DNA from: Anaerolineae bacterium
GTDB taxonomy: Bacteria; Chloroflexota; Anaerolineae; Aggregatilineales; Phototrophicaceae
Assembly (NCBI GenBank): GCA_034436595.1
Contig: DAOTUO010000002.1
Span: forward strand, 5,120-69,119
Length of the DNA stretch: 64,000 nt
Direction: 5' to 3'
In this document: positions 6,021 through 57,627 of the stretch, one piece after another
Numbering within the stretch: position 1 is the first letter of the stretch
Layout: each line of letters starts with the position of its first letter
The notes under the pieces: generated by a model
The model's input: the letters and a program-made list of their open reading frames with translations, nothing else
Database searches by the model: none
What the model was told of the DNA's origin: nothing
Translations under genes and position numbers: made by a program

Positions 6021-7867
6021 TCACACCTCGCCCGTATTTCATATTCCGATACATTTTCAAACTCGCCCTCTGCTGTGATGCGATACATGCCAAAGCGGAT
6101 GCTAAAAATGCCATCACGGGTTTCGCGTTCTAATGGGTATACATCGCGCACAATTTCACCCTTCATCCAGGTGGTGGTGGGTCGCCAAGCATACACAGGC
6201 GCGGGTTGGTCGGCTTGGGTCATTAATCTGCCTTCCATTGGATAGCCATGCACAAAAACACGTAAATCTTCTGTGGGAATAGCGCCTGTGACCCATATCA
6301 CATGCACATAGCGTGTTGTATCGGTGCAGGTGAGGGTGCTATCTATCATCTTAATGCCGTCTAGGGGGGCATCATCCGCTAATTCTGGCGTAGTTTTTAT
6401 TTGCACCAAGTTGGGTGCAATCGCCACAGGGTATATACGCCCAAGTCGTTCTTCCCACCATGCAGGTGGTTGGGTGTATATCGTAAAATCGGGCGTGAGG
6501 AGCATCCGTCCATCTGCCAAAATCCGCGTATAATCGGCTTTATGGTCTACGAGGTCTATATGCGCCAATTCGCCTGTTAAATCGCGCCCAATGCCCGCCG
6601 CAAAGTGATTGGGACCCCATGTGACCATGACGACACTGCCCGCTGGGGCGTGTTTGAGCGTCTCTATCACCTGCAAGCCGGTTTTATCGGTGGTGACATC
6701 CAGCATAAATTCCAGATGTTGGTTAATCAGCCCCCATGATGCCCCAATAAATACGGGGATGAGTGCCAAGTTCCCCATCCATGCGGGGTTTATCTGCCGT
6801 TGCACAGCATCTATCAACAACAACCAACCAAATGCCAATGACAGCACGATTGGCACAATCAGCGCCGACAAAACATCGTTATACATCAGCACATGAAAGA
6901 CATACGCCGCCCCACCCGTGAGTATCATCGCAAGTGCCAGCTTTTTGTGATAAATCAGCCCCACCAGCAAGCCGATAATACCCACCCCCACCCCGATAAC
7001 GGTCATGTCGGTGATGAGGACACGATTCACAAGGTTAAAATTGGCGATGAGCAAATCGGTTGTCTGTGGCAATCCGATAAACCGCGAGGCTTCTGTGCCA
7101 ATGAATTGCGTCCATACCCCATCCCATGTCTGTGGCTCACCATAAACCCACGCCCCGCCAGAAATGCCACGCAGATACATATACAGGTATTGCCCAAAGC
7201 CAATCATCCCCAACAGCAGGCTTATAACGATAATTTGGGGCAATTTGCGCCGATGTTGGATGAAAAGTGGATAGACCGCATACAGCAAGGCGGGAATCAT
7301 CATGGCGGTGGCACGATGATGCGCTACCCCAATGCCACCGATAAACGCCAGCCAGAAAATACGCCCGCGTATGGGGTTTTTCCATAGGGAAATGAGCAAT
7401 AACAGCACCACAATGAGCAAGCCAAAGGTGTATATTTCGGCGATGATATGATGAATCCAGATGGTGCGTGTCAGCCCAAATATGCCAATGACCAGCGCAC
7501 TCAACCATGCCTTGCGGGTGTAATGATAGGCAAGGATATAGACCCCCGTGAGCGCCAAAATGCCCCATAGCAACGACACCAGCGCGGGGGCAATAATGGG
7601 ACTAATGCCAACCATACGCATGACGGTTGTGAGGATATTGCCCAACACCACATATAGCGGATAGCCTGTGGAATGAAGGCTACCCCACAAATTGAGGACG
7701 AGCTGAGTTTCGCCCACATCAATCATAAAATAATGACCAGACCCGTTTGGGATGGTCTGCATGGTGATGGCATATATCCCTAAGAGGAGAAATAATACCA
7801 TCACCCATGCGAGAATTTTCGGTTGTTTGAGTTGTAAAATTAGACGATTTTCCATGCCCATTAGCAT
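6017..7867 (-). CDS. Polytopic membrane protein, DUF2723/TMEM260-like GT-C glycosyltransferase fold (putative protein O-mannosyltransferase-like)
   Basis: 616 aa with many hydrophobic segments. N-terminal DVGETQLVLNLWGSLHSTGYPLY resembles the acidic loop plus (H)xxGYPL motif of DUF2723/PMT-type enzymes (recalled from memory). Large C-terminal soluble domain. Confidence 0.6.
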   Translation of the reverse strand: MLMGMENRLILQLKQPKILAWVMVLFLLLGIYAITMQTIPNGSGHYFMIDVGETQLVLNLWGSLHSTGYPLYVVLGNILTTVMRMVGISPIIAPALVSLLWGILALTGVYILAYHYTRKAWLSALVIGIFGLTRTIWIHHIIAEIYTFGLLIVVLLLLISLWKNPIRGRIFWLAFIGGIGVAHHRATAMMIPALLYAVYPLFIQHRRKLPQIIVISLLLGMIGFGQYLYMYLRGISGGAWVYGEPQTWDGVWTQFIGTEASRFIGLPQTTDLLIANFNLVNRVLITDMTVIGVGVGIIGLLVGLIYHKKLALAMILTGGAAYVFHVLMYNDVLSALIVPIVLSLAFGWLLLIDAVQRQINPAWMGNLALIPVFIGASWGLINQHLEFMLDVTTDKTGLQVIETLKHAPAGSVVMVTWGPNHFAAGIGRDLTGELAHIDLVDHKADYTRILADGRMLLTPDFTIYTQPPAWWEERLGRIYPVAIAPNLVQIKTTPELADDAPLDGIKMIDSTLTCTDTTRYVHVIWVTGAIPTEDLRVFVHGYPMEGRLMTQADQPAPVYAWRPTTTWMKGEIVRDVYPLERETRDGIFSIRFGMYRITAEGEFENVSEYEIRARCE

Positions 7868-8469: not shown

Positions 8470-9039
8470 TTATTTCACCTCTGGATGATATTTTGCCAAC
8501 CACTCACGGCGTAAAATGCCCATGATATGAATATCGTGATACGTCCCATCCCGATAGAGTATCTCGCGCAAAACTGCCTCGCGTACAAATCCAATTTTTT
8601 CATATGACTTTATCGCACGGGCATTATAACTGAACACATTCAATTCCAACCGATGCAAATTTACATCCATGAACGCAAAACGCAACAACACATTCATCGC
8701 ATCAGAACCAAATCCCTTACCCCATTCGCTTGGTTCGCCGATATAAATCCCCACCTCTGCATTACGAGAGTTTTGGCTGATGCTAAAAATAGAGCAATTC
8801 CCCAACAGGCGGTTATCATCTAATGTGCGGATGCCAAACACATATTTATCTTTGCTTTTCGATGCTTCTTCATACCATTCGGTGATGCTGTCCAGTGTTT
8901 TTGGCATAGCAGGGTCACTATTGAGCAACCGTAAAAACTCTGGATTGCTAAACCACTTCTGGTAAATCGGCAAATCATCTTTGCTAATCGCGGTCAGATG
9001 CACTTTTTCTCCACGTAATAAATTACTGGCGTAAATCAT
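8470..9039 (-). CDS. GNAT-family N-acetyltransferase (RimJ/RimL-like), copy 2 (tandem paralog)
   Basis: Trimmed to ATG at 9039 (MIYASNLLRGEKVHL; AGGGGA SD inside the ORF-track extension). IGEPSEWGKGFGSDAM, YNARAIKSYEKIGF. Collinear with copy 1 along the whole length. Confidence 0.85.
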   Translation of the reverse strand: MIYASNLLRGEKVHLTAISKDDLPIYQKWFSNPEFLRLLNSDPAMPKTLDSITEWYEEASKSKDKYVFGIRTLDDNRLLGNCSIFSISQNSRNAEVGIYIGEPSEWGKGFGSDAMNVLLRFAFMDVNLHRLELNVFSYNARAIKSYEKIGFVREAVLREILYRDGTYHDIHIMGILRREWLAKYHPEVK

Positions 9040-9104
9040 ATTTTCCCCTTTCATATAATGCCATTAGTGATGATTTTCCCATATAAAATGCAGATTCGCT
9101 TATA

Positions 9105-10574
9105 TTATAACCCCAATTTTTTGCCTTCATCCCAAAATTTATCGAGTTCATCCAGCGTATAATCGGTGAAAGGCTTATGGCTCTCTGCCACCCGTTTTTC
9201 GACAAATTCAAACCGCCGATAGACTTTTTCATTGGCTTTTTTCAGGGCAGATTCGGGGTCAATTTTCATCCACCGCGCCCAATTGACCAACACAAAAAAC
9301 AAATCTCCCACCTCTTCCATCAAGTGTGCGGGGTCATTTTCGGTTTGTGCCTCTAACACCTCTGCGAGTTCTTCACGCACTTTATCCACCACGCCTTGCG
9401 GGTCTGCCCAATCAAATCCCACCCGCGCCATGCGGTCTTGATATTGCGTGGCGACCATCAACGCGGGCATCCCTTTTGGCACACCTGCCAACATGCTCTC
9501 AAACTCGGCACTCTTATCGGCTTTTTCTGAGGCTTTAATCGCCTCCCAATTGGTGACAACTTGGTCGGCATTTTCGACTGTCACTTCCCCACTCGCGGGT
9601 TTCCATACATGCGGGTGACGGCGAATCATCTTGGTGTTGATATGACGCAACACATCGGTCATATAAAATTCGCCTTCATCAATGGCAATTTGGGTATGCA
9701 AAACCACCTGCAATAACAAATCACCGAGTTCTTTGGCGAGTTCATCGGGATTATCATCTTCAATGGCTTCAATCGCCTCATACGCCTCTTCTAGCATGTA
9801 TTTAATCAGGCTGGTGTGCGTCTGCTTGATGTCCCACGGACACCCCTCTGGTGAGCGTAGATGGGCGACAATCTCTTGAAATTGCTCAAAGCTACTCATC
9901 TCCCCCATTGCGGGTAAATAGAGCGATGTCGTGTGTCCGATATGCTCACTTTGGTCAATGGCGTAGAGGAGCATTTTTTCTGCGATTTCGTCCGATGTCC
10001 CCGCCGAGTGGATGAGTGTCACCTCAAATTCATCGGGATATTGATTCATCAGCGTGAGTTTTATATCAGAGGCGACCATCTGGCTATACACCTGCCCGAT
10101 GATGGCGGGATAATCTGGGTTAATCGGCGGATGGTGCATGGCAACAAGGTCTAACCCGTCTAATAACTGAATCCCGTCTAGCGCATCGTAGCCAATCAGC
10201 CGTAACATCGGCTCGATATAGCTAATGCCACTGACAATTTCCACAGGGATATTTTCGGATTTGGCGCGTGCCATAATTTTGGCGGGTGTAGATTCTCCCA
10301 CAAACGGGTCTCCAGGGACGGCATATACCACATCGCCATTTTTTGCCTGTGTGATAAGCACCTCGACAATGCGCTCATACACCGTCTCAAAGGCATCATT
10401 GGTATTATAAATATCATCAAACGAGTGATAGGTGGGGTTTTGGGGCAAATGTGGCACACATTGGTGCAAATTTGTCCGCAGATATACGGTTTTGGCGTTC
10501 TCTAGCACGCGCCACGCCTTGCGCGATAAATCGTCAATGTCGCCCGGTCCAAGCCCGACTATGGTAATGGTCAT
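9105..10574 (-). CDS. mazG: YabN-like fusion: tetrapyrrole-methylase-like domain plus tandem MazG NTP pyrophosphohydrolase domains
   Basis: 489 aa. N-terminal ITIVGLGPGDIDDLS methylase-type motif. Two MazG EExxE/D helices (MLEEAYEAIEAIEDD, LGDLLLQVV; VREELAEVLEA, MEEVGDLFFVLVNWAR). Confidence 0.85.
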   Translation of the reverse strand: MTITIVGLGPGDIDDLSRKAWRVLENAKTVYLRTNLHQCVPHLPQNPTYHSFDDIYNTNDAFETVYERIVEVLITQAKNGDVVYAVPGDPFVGESTPAKIMARAKSENIPVEIVSGISYIEPMLRLIGYDALDGIQLLDGLDLVAMHHPPINPDYPAIIGQVYSQMVASDIKLTLMNQYPDEFEVTLIHSAGTSDEIAEKMLLYAIDQSEHIGHTTSLYLPAMGEMSSFEQFQEIVAHLRSPEGCPWDIKQTHTSLIKYMLEEAYEAIEAIEDDNPDELAKELGDLLLQVVLHTQIAIDEGEFYMTDVLRHINTKMIRRHPHVWKPASGEVTVENADQVVTNWEAIKASEKADKSAEFESMLAGVPKGMPALMVATQYQDRMARVGFDWADPQGVVDKVREELAEVLEAQTENDPAHLMEEVGDLFFVLVNWARWMKIDPESALKKANEKVYRRFEFVEKRVAESHKPFTDYTLDELDKFWDEGKKLGL

Positions 10575-10643
10575 AAATCCCTCATCATCATTTTTGGGGC
10601 ATCATCAATTGCCCTGTTACACAAACTATTTTACCCGAAAAAC

Positions 10644-10670
10644 AAAAAATCCCCGTTGTGGGGATTTTTT
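10644..10670. terminator. Bidirectional intrinsic terminator downstream of rpsI
   Basis: AAAAAATCCCC GTTGT GGGGATTTTTT, a perfect palindrome with A/T runs on both sides, 11 nt after the rpsI stop. Confidence 0.8.
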
Positions 10671-10680
10671 GAGACATACT

Positions 10681-11073
10681 CTAGCGTTTGGTATAGGTTG
10701 GGGCTTTACGCGCACGCTTGAGACCTGGTTTCTTCCGTTCTTTCTCACGCGAATCACGGGTGAGATAAGTGGCGGTACGCATACGGGGGCGCAGTTCTGG
10801 GTCAATCTTCAATAATGCCCGTGCGACACCGAGTTTAATCGCATCGCGTTGTCCGCTAATGCCACCACCATTCACATGAACGGTCATATCATAGCTACTC
10901 TCTTGCCCAATGAGGGTAAGTGGCTCGACCATGATTTCATAATCGCCCGCGCGGGGCAAATAATCACGACCATCTTTGTCGTTGATTAGCACATTGCCTG
11001 TGCCATTTGGGTACAAGCGCACACGGGCAGATGCCGATTTACGCCGTCCAATCCCTTCATAATATTGCGACAT
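10681..11073 (-). CDS. rpsI: 30S ribosomal protein S9
   Basis: 130 aa. GIGRRKSASARVRL and C-terminal KKPGLKRARKAPTYTKR. Follows rplM. Confidence 0.97.
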   Translation of the reverse strand: MSQYYEGIGRRKSASARVRLYPNGTGNVLINDKDGRDYLPRAGDYEIMVEPLTLIGQESSYDMTVHVNGGGISGQRDAIKLGVARALLKIDPELRPRMRTATYLTRDSREKERKKPGLKRARKAPTYTKR

Positions 11074-11087
11074 GGGTTATTTTCTCC

Positions 11088-11534
11088 TTAAAGTTCCAAC
11101 GTCAATGATTGCGGATTTTGTGCGGCGTGTGGATGCTCTGAACCAGCATAAATCTTCAGTTTTTTAATCATCTGACGACCCAAGCGGGTTTTTGGCAACA
11201 TGCCACGAATGGCAAACAAGAGTGGACGTTCTGGGAATTTTGCCAGTAAGTCGCGCAAATTGGTCTCTGTAAGACCACTAGGGTATTGGGAGTGGTGATA
11301 ATACATCTTGTCATCCATACGCTTGCCAGTGACATGAATCTTGGCGGCATTAATGATGACGACATAATCGCCAGTATCCAAATTTGGGGTATAAATGGCT
11401 TTGTTTTTGCCCTGCAAAACGGGAGCAATCTTAGAAGCCAAACGCCCAAGGGTTTGCCCTTCGGCATCAATTATCCACCAACGACGCTCGCGCTCGATGT
11501 CGGTGGGGGTTGTTACAAACGTCTTAATTCTCAT
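11088..11534 (-). CDS. rplM: 50S ribosomal protein L13
   Basis: 148 aa. RRWWIIDAEGQTLGRLASKIAPVLQGKNKAIYTP is a typical uL13 N-terminus. Confidence 0.97.
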   Translation of the reverse strand: MRIKTFVTTPTDIERERRWWIIDAEGQTLGRLASKIAPVLQGKNKAIYTPNLDTGDYVVIINAAKIHVTGKRMDDKMYYHHSQYPSGLTETNLRDLLAKFPERPLLFAIRGMLPKTRLGRQMIKKLKIYAGSEHPHAAQNPQSLTLEL

Positions 11535-11633
11535 AAAATCTCCTCAAGCGGGCGCAATTGCTCCGCTATCAACTCAACAATAACTTCGATTTGTGCCACC
11601 CGATAATGTGTATAAGAGGGGTTTTGCGAAGCG

Positions 11634-12392
11634 TTAGTCATTATCATCTGAATAGCGGACTTTTTCAAGCACTAATCCATGTGATGGGGCAATCTGCTTA
11701 ATTTTATCCAGCGCACCATCAACAAAAATTTGCCTAAATTGGGAGATAGATAGCATCCCCCGCCCCACCGACACTTGCGCCCCCACCATCCGCCGTACCA
11801 TGTGATATAAAAAGGCGTTGGCTTCTACGGTATAACGCACAATCGCCCCATCATCGGTTGGTGTGGATGTCCATGCAGACACAAATACCTCGCGGATGGT
11901 GCTATCGCCTCCCTGCGGGTCTTGACCAAATGCCCTAAAATCATGCACACCGATGAGCATCTGGCTCACCGTTTGCATCGGCTTTAGTGACAAATCCCCG
12001 CGCACATGCCATGCCGAATGACGATACAACGGATGGCGATAGGGTGTGTTGAGTACCGTATAAACATATTGACGGGAACGCGCATCATAACGCGGATGAA
12101 ATCCGTCATGCAGGCACATATCGCGCAAGGCAATATCATCGGGCAAATTGGCATTGATAGCGCGGAGTAAGGCTTCATCGGTATGCTTCCAATCCACATC
12201 AAAAGCGATGACCTGTCCAGTGGCATGGACACCCGTATCGGTACGACCCGCGCCTAAAACAGTCACAGATTGACCTGTCACTTGGTGAACAGCCGTCTCG
12301 ACCATCAATTGGATTGTGGGTAAACTGAGTTGACGCTGAAAGCCCATATAGGCTGTGCCGTCATAGATGAGGGTGGCGCGATAACGAGGCAT
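11634..12392 (-). CDS. truA: tRNA pseudouridine(38-40) synthase TruA
   Basis: 252 aa. LIYDGTAYMGFQRQ and GAGRTDTGVHATGQV (catalytic Asp motif). Confidence 0.95.
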   Translation of the reverse strand: MPRYRATLIYDGTAYMGFQRQLSLPTIQLMVETAVHQVTGQSVTVLGAGRTDTGVHATGQVIAFDVDWKHTDEALLRAINANLPDDIALRDMCLHDGFHPRYDARSRQYVYTVLNTPYRHPLYRHSAWHVRGDLSLKPMQTVSQMLIGVHDFRAFGQDPQGGDSTIREVFVSAWTSTPTDDGAIVRYTVEANAFLYHMVRRMVGAQVSVGRGMLSISQFRQIFVDGALDKIKQIAPSHGLVLEKVRYSDDND

Positions 12393-43931: not shown

Positions 43932-43958
43932 ACGGGGGGCTTATCACAGCCACCCGTT
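43925..43958 (-). terminator. Terminator-like hairpin downstream of the 43974 gene (overlaps the recF 3' end)
   Basis: AACGGG-G-GGC...GCC-A-CCCGTT (43931-43958). The minus-strand copy is followed by TTATTTT. Confidence 0.45.
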
Positions 43959-43973
43959 ACACAACCTCGTTAT

Positions 43974-44702
43974 TTAAGGCAGGATGAAAATCACATTTTG
44001 CTCTAATGGAACTCTGCCCCAGTTGGTGATTTGACCCTGACAAGTGAATGTTTTACTGCCCATTTTGCCATCGGGATAGGGATAAGCCACGGTGCATTGC
44101 CCATTACCATTATAGGTGAAGGTGATATTGCCTGCGTCATTGCTCCCCAACACATCGCCCGCTTCGGCATTGGCTAAGGCTTCTTGGGTCACACGGAAGG
44201 ACAAAATGCCCGCCCCGTCAAAGATTTGATACACATCATAGCCAGTATCTGGCACGAGATAGGTTTGCGCCAATGCTGCATTATCTCGATAAGCAGGGAA
44301 TGAACAGGCATTTCTGGATAGGAGAACGATACTAGCATCTCCCAATGCGAAGAATTCCCCTCTGAGCGCATCTATGAAGGCTCTGGCGGATTCATCGACA
44401 CCCAGACCAAAGCTGTCTAATTCTTGTGCTTCATCAGTGAACATCCAACCTGTGATTTGATAAACATCACCATTAAGTTCTTCTGAGAAGAAAAGGTCAA
44501 ACTGAACGGGAATCAATTCGACACTCAAGCCTTTTATGTTAACCACAATGCCATCCACATAAATGGGAACTGTCAGTTGAACACAAAACCCTTGCGGAAT
44601 AGGTAATTGTGATTGTTGTGGTGTGTTCGATTTTGCACTAACAGGGGTCAATACCATGCTCAAAATCCCGATGAGTAATGCAACTATCATGAGCCGTTTC
44701 AT
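43974..44702 (-). CDS. Secreted protein of unknown function
   Basis: Trimmed to ATG 44702 (MKRLMIVALLIGILSMVLTPVSA; AAGGA 8 nt upstream). No family recognised. Confidence 0.6.
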   Translation of the reverse strand: MKRLMIVALLIGILSMVLTPVSAKSNTPQQSQLPIPQGFCVQLTVPIYVDGIVVNIKGLSVELIPVQFDLFFSEELNGDVYQITGWMFTDEAQELDSFGLGVDESARAFIDALRGEFFALGDASIVLLSRNACSFPAYRDNAALAQTYLVPDTGYDVYQIFDGAGILSFRVTQEALANAEAGDVLGSNDAGNITFTYNGNGQCTVAYPYPDGKMGSKTFTCQGQITNWGRVPLEQNVIFILP

Positions 44703-44872
44703 ATATGTTCCTTTCATCTGAGAAAAAAATTTCGTATTTATTTATATTTACAGTATAGTCTTATTGATGACGCTAGGTGTACACAAATAAAAAAAATTTA
44801 TTTTTGGGGGCTATGGCTAGATGTACATGTTAAGATATATTTTATGAGTATTAATTTTGGAAGGATTTTTAC

Positions 44873-46624
44873 ATGAGACATCGTTTATGGTTTATCGTAT
44901 CATTTGTGTTGATTGGTTTCGGGATATTTCTCCCACAAGCAGTCACAAAAGCAGCCACCGTCACCTATACATCGTGTCCGACTTTTGCGACTTTAGAAGC
45001 GGATGCCAGCACATCAGGCATAATTACCTTCAATGTAGCGGGGGATTGCATCATTGTCTTTGATTATGAAATTGAAATTGATAGTGCCGTGACCATCACC
45101 AATATCGGCAGTGATGTGATTTTTGATGGCTTTGCATTTACCTATCACTTTGATATTTTTCCTTCTGGCAATTTAACCCTCAATAACCTCAACCTCTATA
45201 ATGGGTATTGTTGTGAGGGTGGGTCTATTTATAACGAAGGCACCCTCACTGTCACCAATAGCCTATTCGATTATAATTTTGCAAGTTTATATGGTGGCGC
45301 GATTTATAACGCAGGCGGGACTGTTTTTCTCACCAACACCGATTTTGCAGATAACGGAGCAGGTTTAGATGGTGGCGCGATTTTGAATGACGGTGGCAAT
45401 CTGACGATTGTCGGTGGCTTATTTGATAGCAATATTACAGGAGAGTATGGTGGGGCAATTGCGGGAGATGGTGCGATGAACATCTCTGGCGCATATTTTG
45501 AAAATAACGAAGCCTCCAGTATGAATGGTGGCGCAATTTATAATTTGGATGGCTCATTAACGGTGTCTAATAGCACCTTTGAGGGCAATTATGCCAATTC
45601 TGGTTATGGTGGTGCCATTAACCAAGAAGATGGAACAACCATCATCACAGGAAGCACTTTTTATGATAACTATGCGGATGATGGTGGTGCGGTGAATAAC
45701 GACTATGGCACGATGACCATCAGCCACAGCAGTTTTTATTTCAACACTGCATCGTATGGTGGGGCAATATATAATTTTGATGGTGCGGTTTTGAATGTGA
45801 GTAACAGCACCTTCTATGGCAATGAAGGTTATACTCAGGGAGGTGTATTTTATAATAACGATGCAACTGCTACCTTCACGCATGTGACAATGGCAAACAA
45901 CACTTCTCCACTTGGCGCGACATTACATAATTATGATGGTGCTTCTACCACGATAATCGCCAGTATTTTATCGGGCGGGGATTGTAATTTGGAAAGTGGC
46001 TCAATCAATGATGGTGGCAATAATATTCAGTTCAATGCACCCGGTTGTGTTGGCACAGATGCAGACCCACTGCTTGGGGCGTTTGCGGGTGGTGTGATGT
46101 ATCCCGCGTTGGGGTCTCCTGCCATTGATATTTATGGCGCACCCTGTTTGGTCGCAAATGACCAGTTAGGGACAGTCCGTCCCAACGGCACGGGTTGCGA
46201 TGCAGGTGCGACAGAAGGCGATGGTTCTACGGTGGTGGTGGTTGCGCCGAGTGTGACGGGTCCAGAGGTGATTGGGTGTGTATTCGATACCCCCAATGGC
46301 ATGGCAATCGGCAATGTGCCAGATAACACCTATTGCACCGTTCTCATGCGAAATGGTGGTGTGGTCAATTATTCGGGTGCTGTCCCAGCCGAATTGATTG
46401 GGCTTGGTGTGATTTTTGCGGTGGATGTTTATCGTTTAGAGGGTGGTCAGAGTATTCAGGAATTCCCAGATTATGGTCAAGTATGCTTACGTGGCTCTGG
46501 TCGCTTATTTTATATGGATGCGCGGAATATGCCCCGTTATTCTGTCGAAATGCCCACTGAACGCGTAGATGGCATGACCTGTGCATGGATTCCCGCACCG
46601 GGGACATTGATTTTGACGAATTAA
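44873..46624 (+). CDS. Secreted parallel beta-helix protein with Pmp-type (GGAI / FxxN) repeats
   Basis: 583 aa. Signal peptide, then at least nine ~23-25-aa units such as GGAIYNAGGTVFLTNTDFADN, GGAIYNLDGSLTVSNSTFEGN and GGAIYNFDGAVLNVSNSTFYGN. Confidence 0.7.
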   Translation: MRHRLWFIVSFVLIGFGIFLPQAVTKAATVTYTSCPTFATLEADASTSGIITFNVAGDCIIVFDYEIEIDSAVTITNIGSDVIFDGFAFTYHFDIFPSGNLTLNNLNLYNGYCCEGGSIYNEGTLTVTNSLFDYNFASLYGGAIYNAGGTVFLTNTDFADNGAGLDGGAILNDGGNLTIVGGLFDSNITGEYGGAIAGDGAMNISGAYFENNEASSMNGGAIYNLDGSLTVSNSTFEGNYANSGYGGAINQEDGTTIITGSTFYDNYADDGGAVNNDYGTMTISHSSFYFNTASYGGAIYNFDGAVLNVSNSTFYGNEGYTQGGVFYNNDATATFTHVTMANNTSPLGATLHNYDGASTTIIASILSGGDCNLESGSINDGGNNIQFNAPGCVGTDADPLLGAFAGGVMYPALGSPAIDIYGAPCLVANDQLGTVRPNGTGCDAGATEGDGSTVVVVAPSVTGPEVIGCVFDTPNGMAIGNVPDNTYCTVLMRNGGVVNYSGAVPAELIGLGVIFAVDVYRLEGGQSIQEFPDYGQVCLRGSGRLFYMDARNMPRYSVEMPTERVDGMTCAWIPAPGTLILTN

Positions 46625-49361: not shown

Positions 49362-49397
49362 GCTTCACATATTTGAGTGATTAACTGGAAAAAAACC

Positions 49398-50789
49398 ATG
49401 TCCCATATATTTATCAGCTATAGCAGAGAAGATGTTGATTTTGCCCGTTATTTACGAGCGCAATTTGAAACCGAAGGGTATCGGGTATGGATGGATGAAC
49501 AGCGTCTACATCCCGGTAGCGATTGGTGGGACGAAATAGAGAACAACATCATCACCTGTAGCGTATTTATGGTGGTGATGTCGCCCAATTCGGCAGGGTC
49601 TAAGTGGGTGAAGCGCGAAATTTTGTGTGCAGAAGACAATCATCGCCCCATTTTCCCCATATTACTGGCAGGTAAGGTATTTGGCAGATTAGCCGATTTG
49701 CAAGCCGAAAATATGATGGGGGGCATCACTGCCAAATTGTCGCAACGGCTATTGGACAGCCTCAAAGGGCTTTTATCCACCAATACCAACACCCCCCTAA
49801 TGGTCAAAATCACCAAAGCCAATATCAGCCAATTCCCCGCCGATGTCATGGTCTTAAAATATTCAAAAGGCTTTTTGGGCGCGAGTATGCACGTTTTTAA
49901 CAGCCTACAACAAGTTGGTACAACCATTAATACGGCAGAACTGACAGAAATTGGGTCATATCAACTGCTAAATACTCAAGATGCTCTCACGGCACCATTA
50001 GTCTTGTATGTGTCCACACCCTATCCACGCCAATTCAAATATACCGATTTAACTGCCTTCATCAAACGGTCTTTTATCATCCTCAAAGAACAAAAACCCG
50101 ATATTCAGCATGTTGCCATGACCATTCACGGCATTAAATTTGGACTAGATGAACGCGAAGCCTTCCTCACCCAGATGAACGCCATTTTTGAGGCGTTTAT
50201 CTCTGGCGATGTCCCGCCAAAATTAGAGCGTGTGAGCATTATCGAAAACGACGCAGGACGTGCGACGCGATTGATTGATATTGCCGATGAATTCACCGAT
50301 ATGCGCGAGGACATAACCACTGTCGAAAATGACATGGGGGCGTATCGTCTGGATATACAACGCGCTACCACCGAAATACCCGCCATCGTCATTTCCGATA
50401 CCAAGCCCTATATTTTGGCAATCATGCCCCCCGCTGATAGCTATGATGATTCGTTTTATTATGGCATCCAACGCCCCACCCATACCTATGGCTTGTTATG
50501 TGAACGTGAATCGGCAGAATTGCTCATCGAAATGCCCGCCGACATCGAAAATTTACAAAGCCGGATCGAATTGGCGCGCGGGGTGATTATTCATCTGGAT
50601 GATAAGCCACTCACGCCCGATTTTGCCATGCAAATTGGCTTAGTATGGGGTGCAAAACGCCCCACCCTATTTATCTGCCAATCGGACAATACCGCCCATC
50701 ATTTGTTGCCCAAAGATGCCATTCATACTTATAAAAAAATATCTGAATTAGAGATATTTATTGCCGATTATCTCGGAGGCATATCATGA
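49398..50789 (+). CDS. Three-domain TIR protein (TIR / macro-like alpha-beta module / nucleoside 2-deoxyribosyltransferase-like module)
   Basis: Trimmed to ATG 49398. TIR: IFISYSREDVDFARYL...VWMDEQRLHPGSDW...SKWVKREIL. The middle and C-terminal assignments rest on pattern similarity only (see findings). Confidence 0.85.
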   Translation: MSHIFISYSREDVDFARYLRAQFETEGYRVWMDEQRLHPGSDWWDEIENNIITCSVFMVVMSPNSAGSKWVKREILCAEDNHRPIFPILLAGKVFGRLADLQAENMMGGITAKLSQRLLDSLKGLLSTNTNTPLMVKITKANISQFPADVMVLKYSKGFLGASMHVFNSLQQVGTTINTAELTEIGSYQLLNTQDALTAPLVLYVSTPYPRQFKYTDLTAFIKRSFIILKEQKPDIQHVAMTIHGIKFGLDEREAFLTQMNAIFEAFISGDVPPKLERVSIIENDAGRATRLIDIADEFTDMREDITTVENDMGAYRLDIQRATTEIPAIVISDTKPYILAIMPPADSYDDSFYYGIQRPTHTYGLLCERESAELLIEMPADIENLQSRIELARGVIIHLDDKPLTPDFAMQIGLVWGAKRPTLFICQSDNTAHHLLPKDAIHTYKKISELEIFIADYLGGIS

Positions 50790-51313
50790 CCGAAAAATGG
50801 ATTACCACCAAAGCCGATTTATTGCCCCAGCTTGAGGAACAATGGGACGCGCTTCATGCCCTGTTCAACATCCTCACAGACTATCAACTCACCCAGATTA
50901 AAAATCCTGATGGGTGGGCAATCAAAGACCATGTGGCGCATCTCACCGCATGGGAAAATTCGGTGATTGCCTTGCTGACGGGTATCCCCCGACATGAGGG
51001 GCTTGGGATTGCACAGGCGTTGTATAATAGTGATGATTTGGATGCTATCAATAAGGCAATTTTTGACATGCACAAAGACGACCCCACCCATGTGGTTTTC
51101 CCGGAATTCCATAAATCCCATGAAAAATTATTGTCGCTGATAGACGGGCTATCCGATGAAGATTTGAATAAAGGATACGGTCACTTTTTGCCCACCGAAA
51201 CAGGCGGGCATTTGCCTGTTATCAACGTGATATATGGCAATACGGTGCATCACTTTAAGGAACATTTGGGGTGGATAGAGGCGATGTTGGCACGGCACAA
51301 TAGCGAGAAATAA
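50786..51313 (+). CDS. DinB / ClbS(DfsB)-like four-helix-bundle protein
   Basis: 175 aa. KADLLPQLEEQWDALHALF, GWAIKDHVAHLTAWE, NTVHHFKEHLGWI. ATGA overlap with the TIR gene; GGAGG 6 nt upstream. Confidence 0.55.
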   Translation: MTEKWITTKADLLPQLEEQWDALHALFNILTDYQLTQIKNPDGWAIKDHVAHLTAWENSVIALLTGIPRHEGLGIAQALYNSDDLDAINKAIFDMHKDDPTHVVFPEFHKSHEKLLSLIDGLSDEDLNKGYGHFLPTETGGHLPVINVIYGNTVHHFKEHLGWIEAMLARHNSEK

Positions 51314-51317
51314 AGAC

Positions 51318-52181
51318 CTATTTGGGCAGAGTTTTTATAAAATCGGCAATCCGCGCTTGGTCATCGGCTGAATATGCCGATGGATTTTTGAGTTCAGAAG
51401 CAGGATTACCCAATTGCTGAAATAAGCGACTGCCATTATAAACCTGCTGATAGGCTTGCCCTAAATCCAAAATAAATTTATCTTCCCCTTCTAATGGCAC
51501 ATAAAATTTAGGCAATGGGTCAAGTAACCCGATTTGGTAAATATCTACTTTGCCCACGGAATCATGCGCATGGGGGTCGGTGACAATGGCATAATAAGGT
51601 GTGCTATTGAGCATATCAGGGTAATCGGGAATATAAGGTAAAATAGGCTGTGTTTGATGTAAAAAGTCAATTTCCACTAAATTCAATCCTGCCCATAAAG
51701 ATGGCTCGCGTTTTTTGATATATGGCGCATAATAACTAGATGGCGGTTTATTGGCAGGTGATAATAATTCGATACGGGTCACTGGCGTTGAATTTAAGAC
51801 AGAATCTTTGAATTTATAGATGACCAAAGCCTGCACAGCATCCTCTGGTGTCAATAAATAATCTAAATTCCTTGTCATGGTAGGGGCAGTCACTGTTGCA
51901 GTTGGAATAGCGGACTGATATCTATCAGAAGTGCCTCGAATCAAAATATCAGGTCTGATGCGTTCTGTTGTAGGTGAATCAAACTCATCCAATAAATTAA
52001 TATGTGCTAATTGAAGTGATTCTTCGTTGGATGTGTAATAACCATCTGGCAAGCTAATATCAATCACATCAGATAAATGTGATAAATATTTATTATGGAA
52101 GCCATGCCACCCGCGGGGTTGCAAATAACTATTCAAATGGGCATTCACACCGGGATATGGATTTCTGCCAGCCATCATCAA
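51318..52181 (-). CDS. DUF4058-family protein (restriction-endonuclease-fold-like)
   Basis: 287 aa. N-terminal NPYPGVNAHLNSYLQPRGWHGFHNKYLSHL matches the remembered DUF4058 opening (P-F/Y-P-G-x-D/N-x-Y-L...W..FH). RPDILI and IELLSPANK motifs. Confidence 0.65.
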   Translation of the reverse strand: MMMAGRNPYPGVNAHLNSYLQPRGWHGFHNKYLSHLSDVIDISLPDGYYTSNEESLQLAHINLLDEFDSPTTERIRPDILIRGTSDRYQSAIPTATVTAPTMTRNLDYLLTPEDAVQALVIYKFKDSVLNSTPVTRIELLSPANKPPSSYYAPYIKKREPSLWAGLNLVEIDFLHQTQPILPYIPDYPDMLNSTPYYAIVTDPHAHDSVGKVDIYQIGLLDPLPKFYVPLEGEDKFILDLGQAYQQVYNGSRLFQQLGNPASELKNPSAYSADDQARIADFIKTLPK

Positions 52182-52335
52182 TTATCCTTTACACTCATTT
52201 TATTCATTATAACATGATTTTGTTAATCATCACGCCTCGTCAATCGGCATAAACCCCTCTATAATAAACACATATTTCTATCTTGCGGACAGCAAAAATG
52301 CCGTCCCTACGAACATATTGGTGAGGACAAATCGT

Positions 52336-55300
52336 ATGTCGCAACCGTTAAATTTTCAGCAAGTTATCCTCAAATTACATGAATTTTGGGCATCGCAAGG
52401 CTGTGCCATCTGGGAGCCATATAACATGCAGGTCGGTGCTGGCACAGCCAACCCCGCCACGCTTTTGCGTGTATTGGGTCCCGAACCGTGGCGCGTAGCG
52501 TATGTAGAGCCATCCGTCCGCCCCGATGATGGGCGCTATGGCGAAAATCCCAATCGGATGCAAAAATATTATCAATATCAAGTCATCCTCAAGCCAGACC
52601 CCGGTAATCCACAGGAACTATATCTCAAATCGCTAGAAGCATTGGGGATTAACCCGCGTGAGCATGATATTCGCTTTGTCGAAGATAATTGGGAATCTCC
52701 CGCGCTAGGTGCATGGGGTTTGGGTTGGGAAGTGTGGCTAGATGGTCAAGAAATCACCCAATTCACCTATTTTCAACAAGCAGGCGGGCTGGAATGTAAC
52801 CCCGTATCGGTAGAAATCACCTACGGCGTGGAGCGCATTGTGCTGGCTTTGCAGGGCAAAAATTCGGCTTGGGAAATTGATTGGCTAGACGGTCTGACCT
52901 ATCACGACATGATGTATAACGAAGAGGTGGAGCATTGTCGGTATTATTTTGACATTGCCGATGAAAATGCGCTCAAAGGGGTCTATGACACCTATGAGAA
53001 CGAATACAAACGCGCCCTAGAGGGCAACGCGCTCATCAGCGCCTATGATTATGTCCTCAAATGTAGCCATTTGTTCAATGTGTTAGATACACGCGGGGCA
53101 ATCGGCGTGACAGAACGCGCCTATTATTTTAAGCGGATGAGGGAGATGACACGCACGATTGCCAAAACATACGCCGCCAAACGTGAGGAACTCGGCTACC
53201 CACTCATGCGAATGAATAGCAAGTGGGGTGAACCGCAAACCCCCGATGCACCCGAACAAGTGCTATATCAACATCCACCCACAGAACCAAAAGACTTTTT
53301 ACTAGAAATTGGTGTGGAAGAACTCCCTGCCCAAGATGTGGATAGCGCCCTCGCCTATCTCCGCGCCACCGCACCCAAATTTTTCGCAGATTTACATTTG
53401 GATGTGGAAGCCGTGTATGTGTTTGCGACACCGCGCCGTCTGGTGATTCATGCGGTCAATCTCGCCCCAAAACAAGCCGATGTGCAACTAGTCGAGAGAG
53501 GTCCCGCCGCCAACCGTGCTTTTAATCCCGATGGCACACCCACCAAAGCCGCAGAAGGCTTTGCACGGGGCAAAGGTGTGGATGTCTCGGCATTACGCAT
53601 CGAAAAAACCGATGCAGGTGAATATGTTGTGGCAGATGTCCATCATATCGGCAGACATACTATCGCTGTGTTGATAGATGCCCTACCAGATTATCTCGCG
53701 GGGATAAAATTCACCAAAATGATGCGCTGGAATAGCACAGGCGTGGCATTTTCGCGCCCCATTCGCTGGTTATTGGCACTATACGACAATGCCATCGTCC
53801 CATTCAATTATGCAGGTGTGACCAGTGGCGCAGTGACATACGGGCTACGTCCATTCGGCTCGTTGCCAGAAGTCGTGACCGATGTCATGGGTTATTTTGA
53901 TGCAATGGGCAGGCAAGGCATTGCACTGAATATCGAAGAACGCCGTGAGATTATCCAGCAACAAATCGCAACGCTGGCGGATGAAGTCGGCGGAAAAATC
54001 CCCAACGACCCCGCCCTGTTGGATGAGGTGGTCAATCTCATCGAAGCGCCAACCTCGCTACGTGGGACATTTGAGGAAAAATATTTAGCACTTCCCCGTG
54101 AAGTGCTGGTGACAGTCATGCGGAAGCATCAACGCTACTTCCCGATTGAGGATAAAAATGGCGACCTCATGCCCTATTTTATCACCGTCCGCAATGGTGA
54201 TATGCACTATCTGGATAAGGTCACACATGGCAACGAACACGTTTTGCGGGCGCGTTTTTCTGATGCCAATTTCTTCTATAGCGAGGACATCAAAAAATCA
54301 CTGCCAGATTATTTGCCCCGCCTGAGTACCCTCACCTTTCAAGAGCAATTGGGGTCTATGATGGATAAAAATAACCGTGTGGCGGGTTTGGTCGAATCAC
54401 TCGGCGGGTTACTCGGTGTGTTCTCTACGGATATTGCCACCGCCAAAACCGCCTCATCTGTCCTCAAAGCCGATTTAGCCACGCAAATGGTCGTCGAAAT
54501 GACTTCGTTACAAGGGGTCATGGGGCGCGAATATGCCCTACGCGGTGGGATGCCCAAAGAGGTCGCACACGCCATCAGCGAACATTGGCAACCCCGTTCT
54601 GCTGGTGATAACACCCCATCTAGCCAAGCAGGGGCATTGCTCGCCATCACCGATAGGCTCGATAGCCTTGTGGGGCTATTTGGGGCAGGACTCGCGCCAA
54701 AATCCACCGCAGACCCTTATGGGTTACGGCGGGCGGCGTTGGGTGTGATTCAAATTGTGGTGGATAAAAAGATGAACACCGATTTGCGCCTGCTCATCAA
54801 TACCGTAGCCGATGCCCAACCCATCACCATATCCGATGAGACCAAAACCGCCGTACTCGATTTTATCGGTGGGCGGTTGCGCGTGTGGCTCGGTGAAGGC
54901 GATTATGCCCCCGATGTCATTAATGCGGTGTTGGCGGAACAGGGTCATAACCCGTATCTGGCGACCATCGGCATTGCACAACTCTCCGAATGGACAAAAC
55001 GTGATGATTGGGCAAACACGTTGGATAGTTTTGCGCGGTGTGTTCGTATCACCCGCGCCGAAAAAGACCGCTATGCGGTGAATCCTGCCTTATTCCAACA
55101 ACCAGAAGAAGGTGCATTGTATGAGGCATACAAATCTGCCAGCAACAATTTGCCTAAAGACGGCGATATTTCGGCATTTTTGACGGCGTTCCTACCGCTT
55201 GTGCCTGCTGTGAGTGCCTTTTTTGGCACGGGCAAGGGGGATGGCGTGCTAGTACATGCCGAAGATGTGGCGGTGCGTCATAATCGGCTGGGTCTGTTGC

Positions 55301-55359
55301 AACTGATTGCACAGATGCAGTCTGGGCGTGCCGATTTGAGCGTGTTGATGGGCTTTTAG
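52336..55359 (+). CDS. glyQS: Glycine--tRNA ligase, fused alpha and beta subunits
   Basis: Alpha part [23 protein letters not shown], beta part [13 protein letters not shown] onward. Trimmed to ATG 52336 (GGTGAGGA SD); the ORF track starts at TTG 52318. Confidence 0.93.
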
Positions 55360-55369
55360 GAGATAATAT

Positions 55370-55400
55370 AAAAAGGTGGGAGAACAGTTCCCACCTTTTT
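55370..55400. terminator. Bidirectional intrinsic terminator between glyQS and the ASCH cassette
   Basis: AAAAA GGTGGGA GAACAGT TCCCACC TTTTT. Confidence 0.85.
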
Positions 55401-55412
55401 GTTATCTAGTAT

Positions 55413-56210
55413 TCAAAAAAGAGAAAGCTGTTTTGTTTCAGTTTTAGGAGGATAAAATACTCCTAAAACAACCCAAGAGTTATAGGGAAAAATTGTACCC
55501 ATAAAAAATTGAGTGTCTTTTTTAGGGTCACATAAATCATCAAGGTATTTCTTTTTAACACTTTCTGCGGCTTTTTCTTCACTACCTAATTTATCAACTT
55601 CCTTTAGAAAAAGTACCCCTAATTCCCAATCTTCACACATAGTTTTATGATAGCTTTTGCTGTCCTCACATTCAAAAATATATGAGAACTTATAAGGTAT
55701 CTTCTTAAGTGGCTTTGGTGGTTCTCCAAATAACTTTAATTGTCTATAAAGAGCTTCCCATTCAGGTTTCCACTCTCTGTCTGCTTCTTCAATTACCATG
55801 TCTATTATTTTACTAGGACGTACAATACCTAACGATGTTTTATCAATATCATACAACTCACGATATTGATTGACTGTATAGCGGGGTAATTTATCTATAA
55901 TTTCACGCCGTGCAGACCAATTATTGCTTGTCAGAATAGGTTTTCCCAAAGGTCTGATTGTTTCCAAATTAGGTTTACGACTCTCTTTACGATTATCATT
56001 CCCATGCCCTCGGGAGCCTAGTTCAACTTCAATCCATTGGTATTTATGAAATTTTTGTTCATTAGGACGATAACGATAATCTATCGGATATAAACGTACC
56101 CATTCTCCCTGTTTCGTAATCCCTGCCGTACACACCAGTTCTTGGTATCCTCTTGAAGGGTGAGGATATGTCATCACCGTTATTAAAACTTCTGTCTTTT
56201 CCACCTTCAT
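55413..56210 (-). CDS. Orphan 265-aa protein, partner of the ASCH gene; no family recognised
   Basis: Trimmed to ATG 56210 (MKVEKTEVLITVMTYPHPSRGYQELVCTAGI; AGGGGGA 4 nt upstream). An in-frame TAG lies just upstream of the ORF-track TTG. AT-rich codon usage. Confidence 0.7.
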   Translation of the reverse strand: MKVEKTEVLITVMTYPHPSRGYQELVCTAGITKQGEWVRLYPIDYRYRPNEQKFHKYQWIEVELGSRGHGNDNRKESRKPNLETIRPLGKPILTSNNWSARREIIDKLPRYTVNQYRELYDIDKTSLGIVRPSKIIDMVIEEADREWKPEWEALYRQLKLFGEPPKPLKKIPYKFSYIFECEDSKSYHKTMCEDWELGVLFLKEVDKLGSEEKAAESVKKKYLDDLCDPKKDTQFFMGTIFPYNSWVVLGVFYPPKTETKQLSLF

Positions 56211-56607
56211 AAGTCCCCCTAAATTCACTTGTGTAAAGCTCAAATTCTAATACCCACACGTCATAAGATAATTGAGATTTTGCCCCATGAATAATTTTCC
56301 ATGTTGCCAGAAATAATTCTGGTGAATCAAAACCCTCTGCAATTGCATCTGCATGATTGATAAGGTTCACTTGTTCACGCCTAATATTTATAAGCAAAAT
56401 TCGCGCAACCGATTTTTTGCCACGTCCGGGTTGTACAGCATAGGTTTTGCCAACTTGGTAAACTATTCTTTTACCAGATACAACACGATATATACCATCT
56501 TGAAAGGTCATTTTTTCATCAGGCTTAATCAAACGGCGTGTTTGCTTTTTGTACCCACATAAAACTTTATCTAATGTGTGTGCGAAAATCATAAATATCT
56601 CATCCAT
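56062..56607 (-). CDS. ASCH (PUA-like) domain protein
   Basis: HTLDKVLCGYKKQTRRL, GKTYAVQPGRGKKSVARILLINIRREQV, ADAIAEGF, VWVLEFEL. The last ~50 codons overlap the next gene out of frame. Alternative start at ATG 56592. Confidence 0.75.
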   Translation of the reverse strand: MDEIFMIFAHTLDKVLCGYKKQTRRLIKPDEKMTFQDGIYRVVSGKRIVYQVGKTYAVQPGRGKKSVARILLINIRREQVNLINHADAIAEGFDSPELFLATWKIIHGAKSQLSYDVWVLEFELYTSEFRGTYEGGKDRSFNNGDDISSPFKRIPRTGVYGRDYETGRMGTFISDRLSLSS

Positions 56608-56625
56608 GCAACAAACGTTTCATTG

Positions 56626-56654
56626 ATTATAGTTAAGAACAAAGAGGTTTGCAA
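56626..56654 (-). promoter_or_regulatory. Near-consensus sigma-70 promoter of the ASCH cassette
   Basis: Minus strand: TTGCAA (56654-56649), 17-nt spacer, TATAAT (56631-56626). Confidence 0.6.
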
Positions 56655-56675
56655 TAATATCTCTTAGATAAAAAT

Positions 56676-56702
56676 AAAAAAAGCGGAGGGTTGCCCACCC
56701 GC
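56676..56702 (-). terminator. Intrinsic terminator of pdxS
   Basis: GCGG-A-GGG TTG CCC-AC-CCGC hairpin (56683-56702). The minus-strand copy is followed by T7. Confidence 0.75.
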
Positions 56703-56727
56703 CTTTATCACTTATCCTAGAAAAAAA

Positions 56728-57627
56728 TTACCACCCGCGATGGGCGATTTTATTGGCATCTGCCATGGTGCTGACATTGATGCCAACCATCGCCTCGCCC
56801 AATCCGCGACTGACATTCGCCAGCACATCGGGGTTATCAAAGTGGGTCACGGCTTCGACAATGGCTTTGGCACGTTTGGCGGGGTCGCCAGACTTAAAAA
56901 TCCCAGACCCCACAAACACCCCATCCACACCCAATTGCATCATTAGGGCGGCATCGGCAGGCGTTGCCACACCACCTGCGGCAAAATTCACGACAGGCAA
57001 TTTGCCCAATGTCGCCACTTCACGCACCAAATCGTATGACGCTTGGATATTTTTGGCGTAGGTATAGAGTTCATCTTCGCTCATGCTGGTCAGACGGCGG
57101 ATTTCACCGATGACCGTGCGTGCATGGCGCACCGCCTCAACCACATCACCCGTACCCGCTTCACCTTTGGTACGAATCATCGCCGCGCCTTCAGAAATAC
57201 GGCGGAGCGCCTCGCCCAAATTACGGCATCCACACACAAACGGAATTTTAAATTTATGCTTGTTGATGTGATGCTCTTCATCGGCGGGAGTCAGGACTTC
57301 GCTCTCATCAATATAATCCACACCTAACGCTTGCAAAATTTGTGCTTCCACAAAATGCCCAATGCGGGCTTTTGCCATCACAGGAATCGTCACGGCTTTG
57401 ATAATACCCTCAATCATATCGGGGTCGCTCATACGGGCAACACCACCCTGTACGCGAATATCGGCAGGCACGCGCTCCAACGCCATGACCGCACATGCGC
57501 CCGCATCTTCGGCAATTTTGGCTTGGTCTGGTGTGACCACATCCATAATCACACCACCCTTGAGCATTTGCGCCAATCCGCGCTTGGCAATTTCTGTCCC
57601 TGTTTCGCCTAAATGTCCGTTATTCAA
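56728..57627 (-). CDS. pdxS: Pyridoxal 5'-phosphate synthase subunit PdxS
   Basis: [17 protein letters not shown], and [11 protein letters not shown]. Start reassigned to TTG 57627, 7 nt after GGAGG; the ORF-track N-terminal 24 aa were rejected. Confidence 0.93.

Follow-up and report, generated by a model that had tools for sequence, protein, structure and literature searches.

A two-gene operon between glyQS and pdxS of an Anaerolineae bacterium as a possible ASCH-containing variant of the defense candidate PDC-M19

We analyzed a two-gene cassette within a 64,000-nucleotide stretch of DNA from an Anaerolineae bacterium (Chloroflexota; GenBank assembly GCA_034436595.1, contig DAOTUO010000002.1, positions 5,120 to 69,119), which we call the window; coordinates are counted from its first letter unless another locus is named. 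The cassette is a minus-strand operon of about 1.25 kb that sits between the convergent genes glyQS (52318-55359, plus strand) and pdxS (57627-56728, minus strand), with glyQS ending 5' of a hairpin that it shares with the cassette. Gene 1 (56592-56062, minus strand) encodes an ASCH protein, and gene 2 (56210-55413, minus strand) encodes a 265-amino-acid (265-aa) protein of the PDC-M19B family, predicted to consist of two tandem oligonucleotide/oligosaccharide-binding (OB) folds. The cassette is very probably a mobile pair of an ASCH protein and a PDC-M19B protein.

A first-pass annotation, made from the sequence without database searches, had given the cassette its own near-consensus promoter, a bidirectional terminator at one end and the pdxS terminator at the other, and we found all three. 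The pdxS terminator (56700-56681, minus strand) lies just upstream of the cassette promoter, a sigma-70-like TTGCAA-17-TATAAT (56654-56626, minus strand) identified by consensus match only. This site matches 10 of the 12 consensus positions and scores highest within 55200-56900. The number of promoter-like sites in the region (5 observed versus 4.8 expected from shuffled sequences) equals the shuffle expectation, so the cassette promoter is supported by its position and not by statistics. At the distal end, the hairpin at 55370-55400 has a perfect, 100% complementary 12-bp stem with A and T runs on each side. Judged from these features, it can terminate transcription on both strands, of gene 2 on the minus strand and of glyQS on the plus strand.

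Two details of the earlier gene calls had to be changed. The ASCH gene had been started at 56607, whereas all 55 aligned homologues begin with MIFAHTL, and we therefore place its start at the ATG at 56592. The ASCH domain ends near 56236 (...VWVLEFEL). The frame had been thought to stop before gene 2; it continues 149 nucleotides (nt) into gene 2, to a stop codon at 56064-56062. A Shine-Dalgarno-like AGGGGGA (56220-56214, minus strand), inferred from sequence, stands 3 nt 5' of the gene 2 ATG, within the stretch that encodes the ASCH tail.

Hand counts had suggested that the cassette is low in GC, and the computed values agree with them. In a sliding window the GC fraction was 0.31-0.39 across the cassette versus 0.50-0.55 in glyQS and pdxS. 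The coding part (55413-56607) has a GC fraction of 0.359, compared with a mean of 0.479 for the 64 kb (standard deviation 0.028, 1.2-kb windows; z = -4.3). It is the lowest-GC 1.2-kb stretch of the 64 kb, and 0.16% of the 1.2-kb windows are equally low. GC at third codon positions (GC3) is 0.25 in gene 2 and 0.26-0.30 in the ASCH gene, versus 0.53 in glyQS, 0.54 in pdxS and 0.51-0.63 in the neighboring genes. The deficit extends to related cassettes: at the 74 loci with enough flanking sequence, cassette GC averages 0.07 below that of the flanks, lies more than 0.05 below it in 47 and is essentially never above it.

Gene 1 had been recognized as an ASCH (PUA-like) protein, an assignment that holds at the level of fold and family. 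By itself, the window protein matches the ASCH family PF04266 with an E value of 0.055 and 14.6 bits, below the cutoff of 21.2; 42 of the 56 aligned homologues match it at E ≤ 0.01 (best 2.4e-8). In the AlphaFold2 (AF2) model, the per-residue confidence (pLDDT) exceeds 90 for residues ~10-125 and falls to ~50 in the tail. A Foldseek search of the PDB with this model returned ASCH proteins in all of the top 12 places (YqfB, 3s9x, 1t62, PH0355 and ZmASCH), the closest being Escherichia coli YqfB with and without bound N4-acetylcytidine (ac4C), at a TM-score of 0.71-0.74 normalized on the target. The model and its matches together describe the beta-barrel ASCH fold. We found no match to the ASCH protein among the PADLOC models at E ≤ 1, and its C-terminal part matches PHROG 874.

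The active-site residues of YqfB have been assigned by mutagenesis, with K21 as the base, T24 as the nucleophile, R26 forming the oxyanion hole and E74 as the acid; alanine mutants of the Lys, Thr and Arg are inactive, and E74A is 100- to 1,000-fold less active (PMC6972931). The window protein carries the octapeptide GxKxx[E/T]xR (G18-Y-K20-K-Q-T23-R-R25), and an hhalign alignment places its K20, T23, R25 and E91 opposite these four YqfB residues (K21, T24, R26 and E74). All four are invariant in the 56 ASCH homologue sequences. Three residues of the YqfB branch, D27, H70 and Y89, are not retained, the aligned positions being L/V, D87 and H106, which makes the window protein a member of a separate branch and not a YqfB orthologue. 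A 2026 preprint divides ASCH motifs into a threonine type (GKTR) and a glutamate type (GKER) and reports that all 19 diverse ASCH proteins assayed strip ac4C from tRNA. On sequence and modeled structure, gene 1 is thus an ASCH protein of the YqfB type with a complete catalytic set. Because this full set is kept, the protein looks like an enzyme and not a mere reader of modified bases.

Gene 2 had been described as an orphan that matches no family. This remains correct for Pfam and NCBIfam, in neither of which we found a family match, but the protein belongs to two other collections: it matches PADLOC PDC-M19B (PDLC04508) with an E value of 2.6e-83 over model positions 2-267 of 269 and PHROG 25907 with an E value of 3.7e-56. 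It has many relatives. A word-indexed search gave 2,599 matches at E ≤ 0.001, the best 120 of which are 65-79% identical, and an exhaustive search of representatives clustered at 50% identity gave 1,107 clusters at E ≤ 1e-10. An alignment of 50 sequences contains 60 columns without variation, with aromatic or basic residues at many of these positions. Three of the invariant residues are Cys27, Cys181 and His188; Cys227 is nearly invariant. A distant family member lacks these Cys and His residues, so that any metal site in gene 2 would be structural. In another database protein, P0288 (323 aa), the final 200 residues of a gene 2 relative follow an N-terminal portion of 115 residues that is unrelated to the family. 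That N-terminal portion looks like a group II intron reverse transcriptase, and P0288 could reflect either the insertion of an intron or a chimeric gene call.

Structure prediction and a Foldseek comparison, which the first-pass annotation had proposed as a check on gene 2, returned a tandem OB fold. The AF2 model has a pLDDT of 84 and a predicted TM-score (pTM) of 0.83, and its strand order fits tandem OB barrels. All significant matches in the PDB and in a viral structure library are OB-fold nucleic acid binders. Those covering both domains are Teb1, RPA70, Oxytricha TEBP-alpha, POT1, CST and baculovirus LEF-3, with a Foldseek probability of 0.99-1.0 for Teb1, RPA70, TEBP-alpha and CST; matches to single domains include RecO, ligase OB domains, S12 and IF1A. 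We therefore describe gene 2 as a predicted tandem OB-fold protein that, to judge from the model, would bind single strands.

To see how the two genes are combined elsewhere, we scanned one genome per species (185,579 species) and recovered 209 stretches with relatives of gene 2. The best 80 of the 209, to which all partner counts refer, carry relatives that are 61-75% identical. They come from Chloroflexota, Planctomycetota, Cyanobacteria, Acidobacteriota, Poribacteria, Bacillota, Nitrospirota, Spirochaetia, Myxococcota and Armatimonadota. The upstream partner on the same strand is in most cases (69 of the 80 loci) a protein of about 290 aa that matches PDC-M19A (E values of 5e-79 to 4e-83), with a C-terminal DUF488 domain (E values of 1e-23 to 1e-25) and a winged-helix-like N-terminal part. 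An ASCH gene occupies the equivalent upstream position in 10 of the 80, all from Chloroflexota/Anaerolineae, and likewise at loci L009 and L178 and in the window. We found no DUF488 homologue in the ASCH-type loci, no ASCH gene in the DUF488-type loci and, by tblastn, no PDC-M19A homologue in the window. The winged-helix-turn-helix (wHTH)-DUF488 protein is therefore the usual partner of gene 2 and ASCH the minority partner, and DUF488 has been replaced by ASCH in one Chloroflexota clade. The order of the genes is not fixed everywhere: on a Fischerella plasmid, DUF488 lies downstream and not upstream of the gene 2 homologue. Neither ASCH, gene 2 nor the DUF488 partner has a solved structure to which we could detect a relationship at the sequence level.

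Gene 2 proteins that accompany ASCH group into a single neighbor-joining clade, with one DUF488-type sequence nested within it. The distances between ASCH proteins track those between their gene 2 partners (r = 0.82, Mantel P = 0.004, n = 7), which indicates that the two genes have been inherited as a unit; ASCH diverges faster, with a mean distance of 0.39 versus 0.29 for gene 2. A divergent ASCH protein, P0196, likewise precedes a divergent gene 2 relative (E value of 1e-10), so the association is older than the tight clade.

PDC-M19 comes from the guilt-by-embedding survey of Payne et al. (2024), in which genes located inside BREX, DISARM or type I restriction-modification (R-M) systems yielded 145 phage defense candidates; it appears in a supplementary table as cassette FAM_02799>>FAM_02993. 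A literature search on the function of DUF488 gave nothing useful, the full-text matches being mostly incidental or to DUF4886.

The junction between the two genes also distinguishes the two arrangements. DUF488-type pairs mostly overlap by 4 nt (ATGA). We compared frames at 12 ASCH-type loci (the window, L009-L014, L018, L021, L035, L071 and L080) and found in all 12 that the ASCH frame, which is +2 relative to gene 2, stays open for 107-188 nt beyond the gene 2 ATG. The ATGA is still present at the gene 2 start in 11 of them. At DUF488-type loci, the equivalent +2 frame is shut before 107 nt in 41 of 58. The tail encoded by the overlap is modeled as disordered, roughly half of the database homologues lack it, and at L178 a stop codon follows directly after the ASCH domain; these three points weigh against a functional ASCH tail. 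We also considered an ASCH-OB fusion made by frameshifting and ruled it out, given the L178 stop and a TAG that closes the gene 2 frame just upstream. Nor do the homologues include a natural fusion of the two proteins: gene 2 relatives reach at most 327 aa and ASCH relatives at most 234 aa. In the public annotation of eight same-species contigs and of L009, the ASCH gene is uncalled, so that 460-520 nt ahead of gene 2 appear empty. The length of the overlap between the two genes is probably the reason, and the ASCH partner is therefore easily missed in automated annotation.

That the cassette is a self-contained, horizontally acquired two-gene module, as first proposed, is borne out by its GC deficit, its patchy distribution and the occurrence of the syntenic pair at unrelated loci (L009, L012, L178 and others). 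At L009, in a genome of about 60% GC, the ASCH pair lies between a gene for a FAD-binding oxidoreductase and ABC transporter genes; at L178, it lies between a carboxyl transferase gene and an NYN_YacP gene. The L009 ASCH gene, on an ENA contig, is frameshifted into two open reading frames (ORFs; 5581-5811 and 5808-6113) beside an intact gene 2, and it is either a pseudogene or the product of an assembly indel error. Downstream of the L178 pair by about 1.7-5.6 kb (8503-12375 of that locus), we observed genes for E2-CBASS, an E1-like ThiF protein, an 82-aa protein and a methyltransferase, which may form a ubiquitin-like conjugation defense system.

An identical gene 2 protein is present on 22 contigs. 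Eight of these, from several samples, all place it between glyQS and pdxS, which indicates that the cassette has become fixed in the population. A database source attributes the ASCH protein to a bacterium of the Phototrophicales (Chloroflexota). We inspected 80 metagenome loci that encode the closest pdxS relatives (72-83% identity), and in all of them the surroundings of pdxS lack glyQS, ASCH and gene 2. The adjacency of glyQS and pdxS is thus specific to the lineage, and the comparison delimited neither the boundaries of the presumed insertion between the two genes nor a target duplication. Short inverted 8- to 9-mers noted earlier do flank the cassette; they are not conserved in other copies. 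Transposon-like ends in general can be set aside, since DNA similarity to 11 other ASCH-type copies does not extend beyond the coding region (56593-55438) and no terminal repeats are common to the window and these copies. Nor did the 64-kb window contain tRNA genes or known RNA elements, a single Rfam match being far under threshold.

Several relatives of the pair lie in defense-related surroundings, the link that the first-pass annotation had suggested looking for. At two ASCH-type loci, L010 and L035, gene 2 is followed after about 4 nt by a full-length gene for type I HsdR (E = 0); since both contigs break off a short way upstream of ASCH, only the downstream, HsdR side is visible. At L035, a TIR protein follows HsdR. 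At the DUF488-type locus L016, the pair stands between hsdM and hsdS/hsdR, and L019, also of the DUF488 type, has the same gene order by similarity to L016.

More distant relatives of gene 2 (23-34% identity) are found in Gordonia phages, on bacterial plasmids and on Sulfolobus conjugative plasmids; 10 of the 22 bacterial plasmids are typed as conjugative. In Gordonia phage Nymphadora (L090, 3027-4831), gp43 is a PDC-M19B homologue (E value of 2.5e-48) directly after the immunity repressor gp44, in the lysogeny region near the integrase, Cro, anti-repressor and HipA-like genes. We examined gp44 as an A-type partner and rejected it: it has a helix-turn-helix only, with 240 residues lacking any match, and matches neither ASCH, DUF488 nor any PADLOC model. 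Among 2.9 million viral contigs there are seven loci with the pair, all of the DUF488 type, a rarity that argues neither way. More distant ASCH relatives occur, without gene 2, in phage-like gene sets with a DNA methylase and a single-stranded DNA-binding protein (SSB).

Some features of the surrounding window deserve mention in their own right. glyQS encodes a fused alpha-beta glycyl-tRNA synthetase (tRNA-synt_2e and tRNA_synt_2f) in a 1,013-aa ORF, called as 1,007 aa. Upstream of it, 49377-52181 encodes a TIR protein (470 aa; TIR_2 E value of 2e-23, with PADLOC TIR-type matches), a DinB/DUF1706 protein and a DUF4058 protein. A second island of low GC coincides with the DUF4058 stretch (~50900-52650; GC 0.40, GC3 0.34). 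A third, at 43951-46001, spans a 247-aa ORF (43974-44717, minus strand) to which no Pfam family matched, together with the beginning of a gene for a 583-aa Chlamydia-PMP-repeat protein (44873-46624).

Weighing all of this, we give an even chance to the reading that the cassette is a laterally acquired, Chloroflexota-specific variant of PDC-M19 in which ASCH takes the place of DUF488 and which works in defense. An anti-phage role, or one against other mobile genetic elements, is a possibility that we rate slightly below even. In such a role, the tandem OB protein would hold single-stranded nucleic acid, which could belong to the DNA of an invading replicon or be an RNA, for instance tRNA. The ASCH protein would then hydrolyze an N4-acyl or similar exocyclic group on a cytosine of the bound strand, and together they would interfere with the invader, possibly as a second line beside type I restriction. 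This particular clamp-plus-deacylase mechanism strikes us as doubtful. Since DUF488 and a catalytically intact ASCH replace one another cleanly and mutually exclusively beside the same OB protein, PDC-M19 as a whole may be a de-modification system. Candidate N4-acyl targets would be ac4C in tRNA, the loss of which might halt translation in the infected cell, and acylated cytosine in phage DNA, which might thereby be exposed to restriction. That the active step of PDC-M19 is the erasure of a base modification on single-stranded nucleic acid seems to us distinctly improbable.

Several observations weigh against the reading of the cassette as an acquired defense variant of PDC-M19. The window cassette lies between housekeeping genes, outside any defense system, and the nearest defense-like gene, that for the TIR protein (49377-50789), is about 4.6 kb away. 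Neither ASCH nor gene 2 has a nuclease, toxin or antitoxin domain in Pfam, NCBIfam, PADLOC or PHROG. PDC-M19 itself is a predicted system, one of 145 candidates nominated by embedding, and our literature search found it named only in the one supplementary table of Payne et al. (2024). Gene 2 is unusually well conserved for a defense gene. At L181 (and also L182), a 63%-identical ASCH gene (identity over the domain) stands alone, at 6001-6384, between Cad-family and PMT_2 genes. No empty glyQS-pdxS site was found among the 80 metagenome loci with the closest pdxS relatives. The global TM-scores of the gene 2 model are only ~0.3, and its family profile matched no PDB sequence at E ≤ 10, so "tandem OB fold" is to be read as a statement about the fold.

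The same observations bear on the alternatives. The pair might be an accessory module for nucleic acid maintenance, spreading laterally through its usefulness under some stress, in which the OB protein binds a strand and ASCH (or DUF488) removes a cytosine adduct, for example in the repair of damaged bases in single-stranded DNA (ssDNA) or the turnover of ac4C in tRNA and rRNA. The known biochemistry of ASCH proteins, hydrolysis of ac4C and other N4-acylcytosines and deacetylation of tRNA, is not that of defense; the 61-79% identity of gene 2 across phyla fits a conserved cellular substrate; and ordinary metabolic neighbors at the window, L009, L178 and L181, like the missing toxin and nuclease domains, would be expected of such a module. 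It is nevertheless unlikely in our view. The family occurs very patchily and has the low GC usual for mobile accessory genes, the pair recurs next to or within type I R-M operons, homologues occur in a prophage immunity region and on conjugative plasmids, and the A component swaps between unrelated folds, as is common in conflict systems.

A toxin-antitoxin or addiction pair, in which one product inhibits growth, the other neutralizes it and loss is harmful, had been suggested by the first-pass annotation. A compact, mobile, low-GC operon of two genes with overlapping frames, one variable and the other conserved, has the right look, and the N-terminal part of PDC-M19A weakly matches the DarG model (E values of 4e-4 to 0.02). 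We consider it very improbable, given that neither protein matches a known toxin or antitoxin family in Pfam, NCBIfam or PADLOC and that both exceed the usual type II components in size and conservation. Moreover, the lone ASCH of L181 and the frameshifted ASCH beside an intact gene 2 at L009 indicate that neither gene is obviously lethal alone. We attach an equally small probability to a mobile-element function left behind in the chromosome, whether anti-defense or the shielding of the element's own ssDNA: the OB protein would cover ssDNA while the element is transferred or replicated, and the enzyme would remove or change a base mark that host defenses read. The homologues in Gordonia phages, on plasmids (10 of 22 conjugative) and on Sulfolobus conjugative plasmids fit this, as do the distant ASCH relatives in phage-like gene sets and the PHROG 874 match. 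On the other side, the close subfamily is nearly absent from viral contigs, no integrase, transposase, tRNA or repeats marking a surrounding mobile element were found in the 64-kb window, and the Gordonia gene, in a lysogeny-expressed region by the repressor, is better explained as a host-protecting gene.

PDC-M19 is a widespread candidate system in which both proteins lack a known function. The ASCH variant, unrecognized until now and matched by no PADLOC model, brings in an enzyme family of known chemistry and thereby a chemically defined handle on the family pair, with four named residues and nucleoside or tRNA substrates. If the pair protects against phage, base de-modification would become a step in defense and would hint at the role of DUF488. 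If de-modification holds for PDC-M19 generally, it would be a mechanism of defense or conflict without cleavage and would provide, by analogy, the first functional assignment for DUF488. If the pair does not protect, it still illustrates clearly how a small accessory operon can land between housekeeping genes.

We also compared the cassette with known systems, among them those first proposed for it. PUA-like reader-nuclease fusions (the EVE-HNH protein VcaM4I and those with SRA and YTH domains) likewise place a PUA-superfamily domain in a mobile, defense-associated setting, but the cassette has no fused or adjacent nuclease, its ASCH protein retains catalytic residues, and gene 2 is predicted to fold as an OB protein. 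With no nuclease, toxin or antitoxin domain detected, neither this comparison nor the one with classical toxin-antitoxin pairs is backed by our results. The broader proposal of a modified-nucleic-acid sensor paired with an effector is still conceivable. The tandem OB binders of ssDNA (RPA70, Teb1, TEBP-alpha, POT1, CST and LEF-3) share with gene 2 the predicted two consecutive OB barrels. They differ from it in domain arrangement (global TM-score ~0.3), in lacking sequence similarity to it and in that gene 2 has a conserved Cys/Cys/His/Cys set and a helical hairpin in its second domain. The ASCH protein agrees with the ac4C amidohydrolases of the YqfB type in its modeled beta-barrel, its threonine-type GxKxxTxR motif and a putative Lys/Thr/Glu triad with an Arg oxyanion hole. 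It is only about 14-19% identical to YqfB, from which it also differs by about 20 inserted residues and by a disordered tail that is not always present. Its gene belongs to a mobile operon that also encodes an OB-fold partner; YqfB, by contrast, is a monomer of 103 residues.

In its genomic setting, the pair resembles PrrC and RloC as a small extra module in or near hsdM, hsdS and hsdR (L016, L019, L010 and L035); PrrC is cited as almost exclusively embedded in type I R-M systems. The cassette lacks an ABC-ATPase, an anticodon-nuclease domain and any homology to these proteins, and the window copy is not beside an R-M system. A tRNA-directed activity of the cassette, if there is one, would be a further possible parallel. 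The last comparison is with PDC-M19 itself. The A component of the cassette is an unrelated ASCH protein with no PDC-M19A match, in place of wHTH-DUF488, and its junction with gene 2 is an overlap of 107-188 nt instead of the usual 4-nt ATGA. The two agree in that gene 2 is a full-length PDC-M19B protein, the genes share one strand with the partner directly upstream, and some relatives of the cassette lie beside or inside type I R-M operons.

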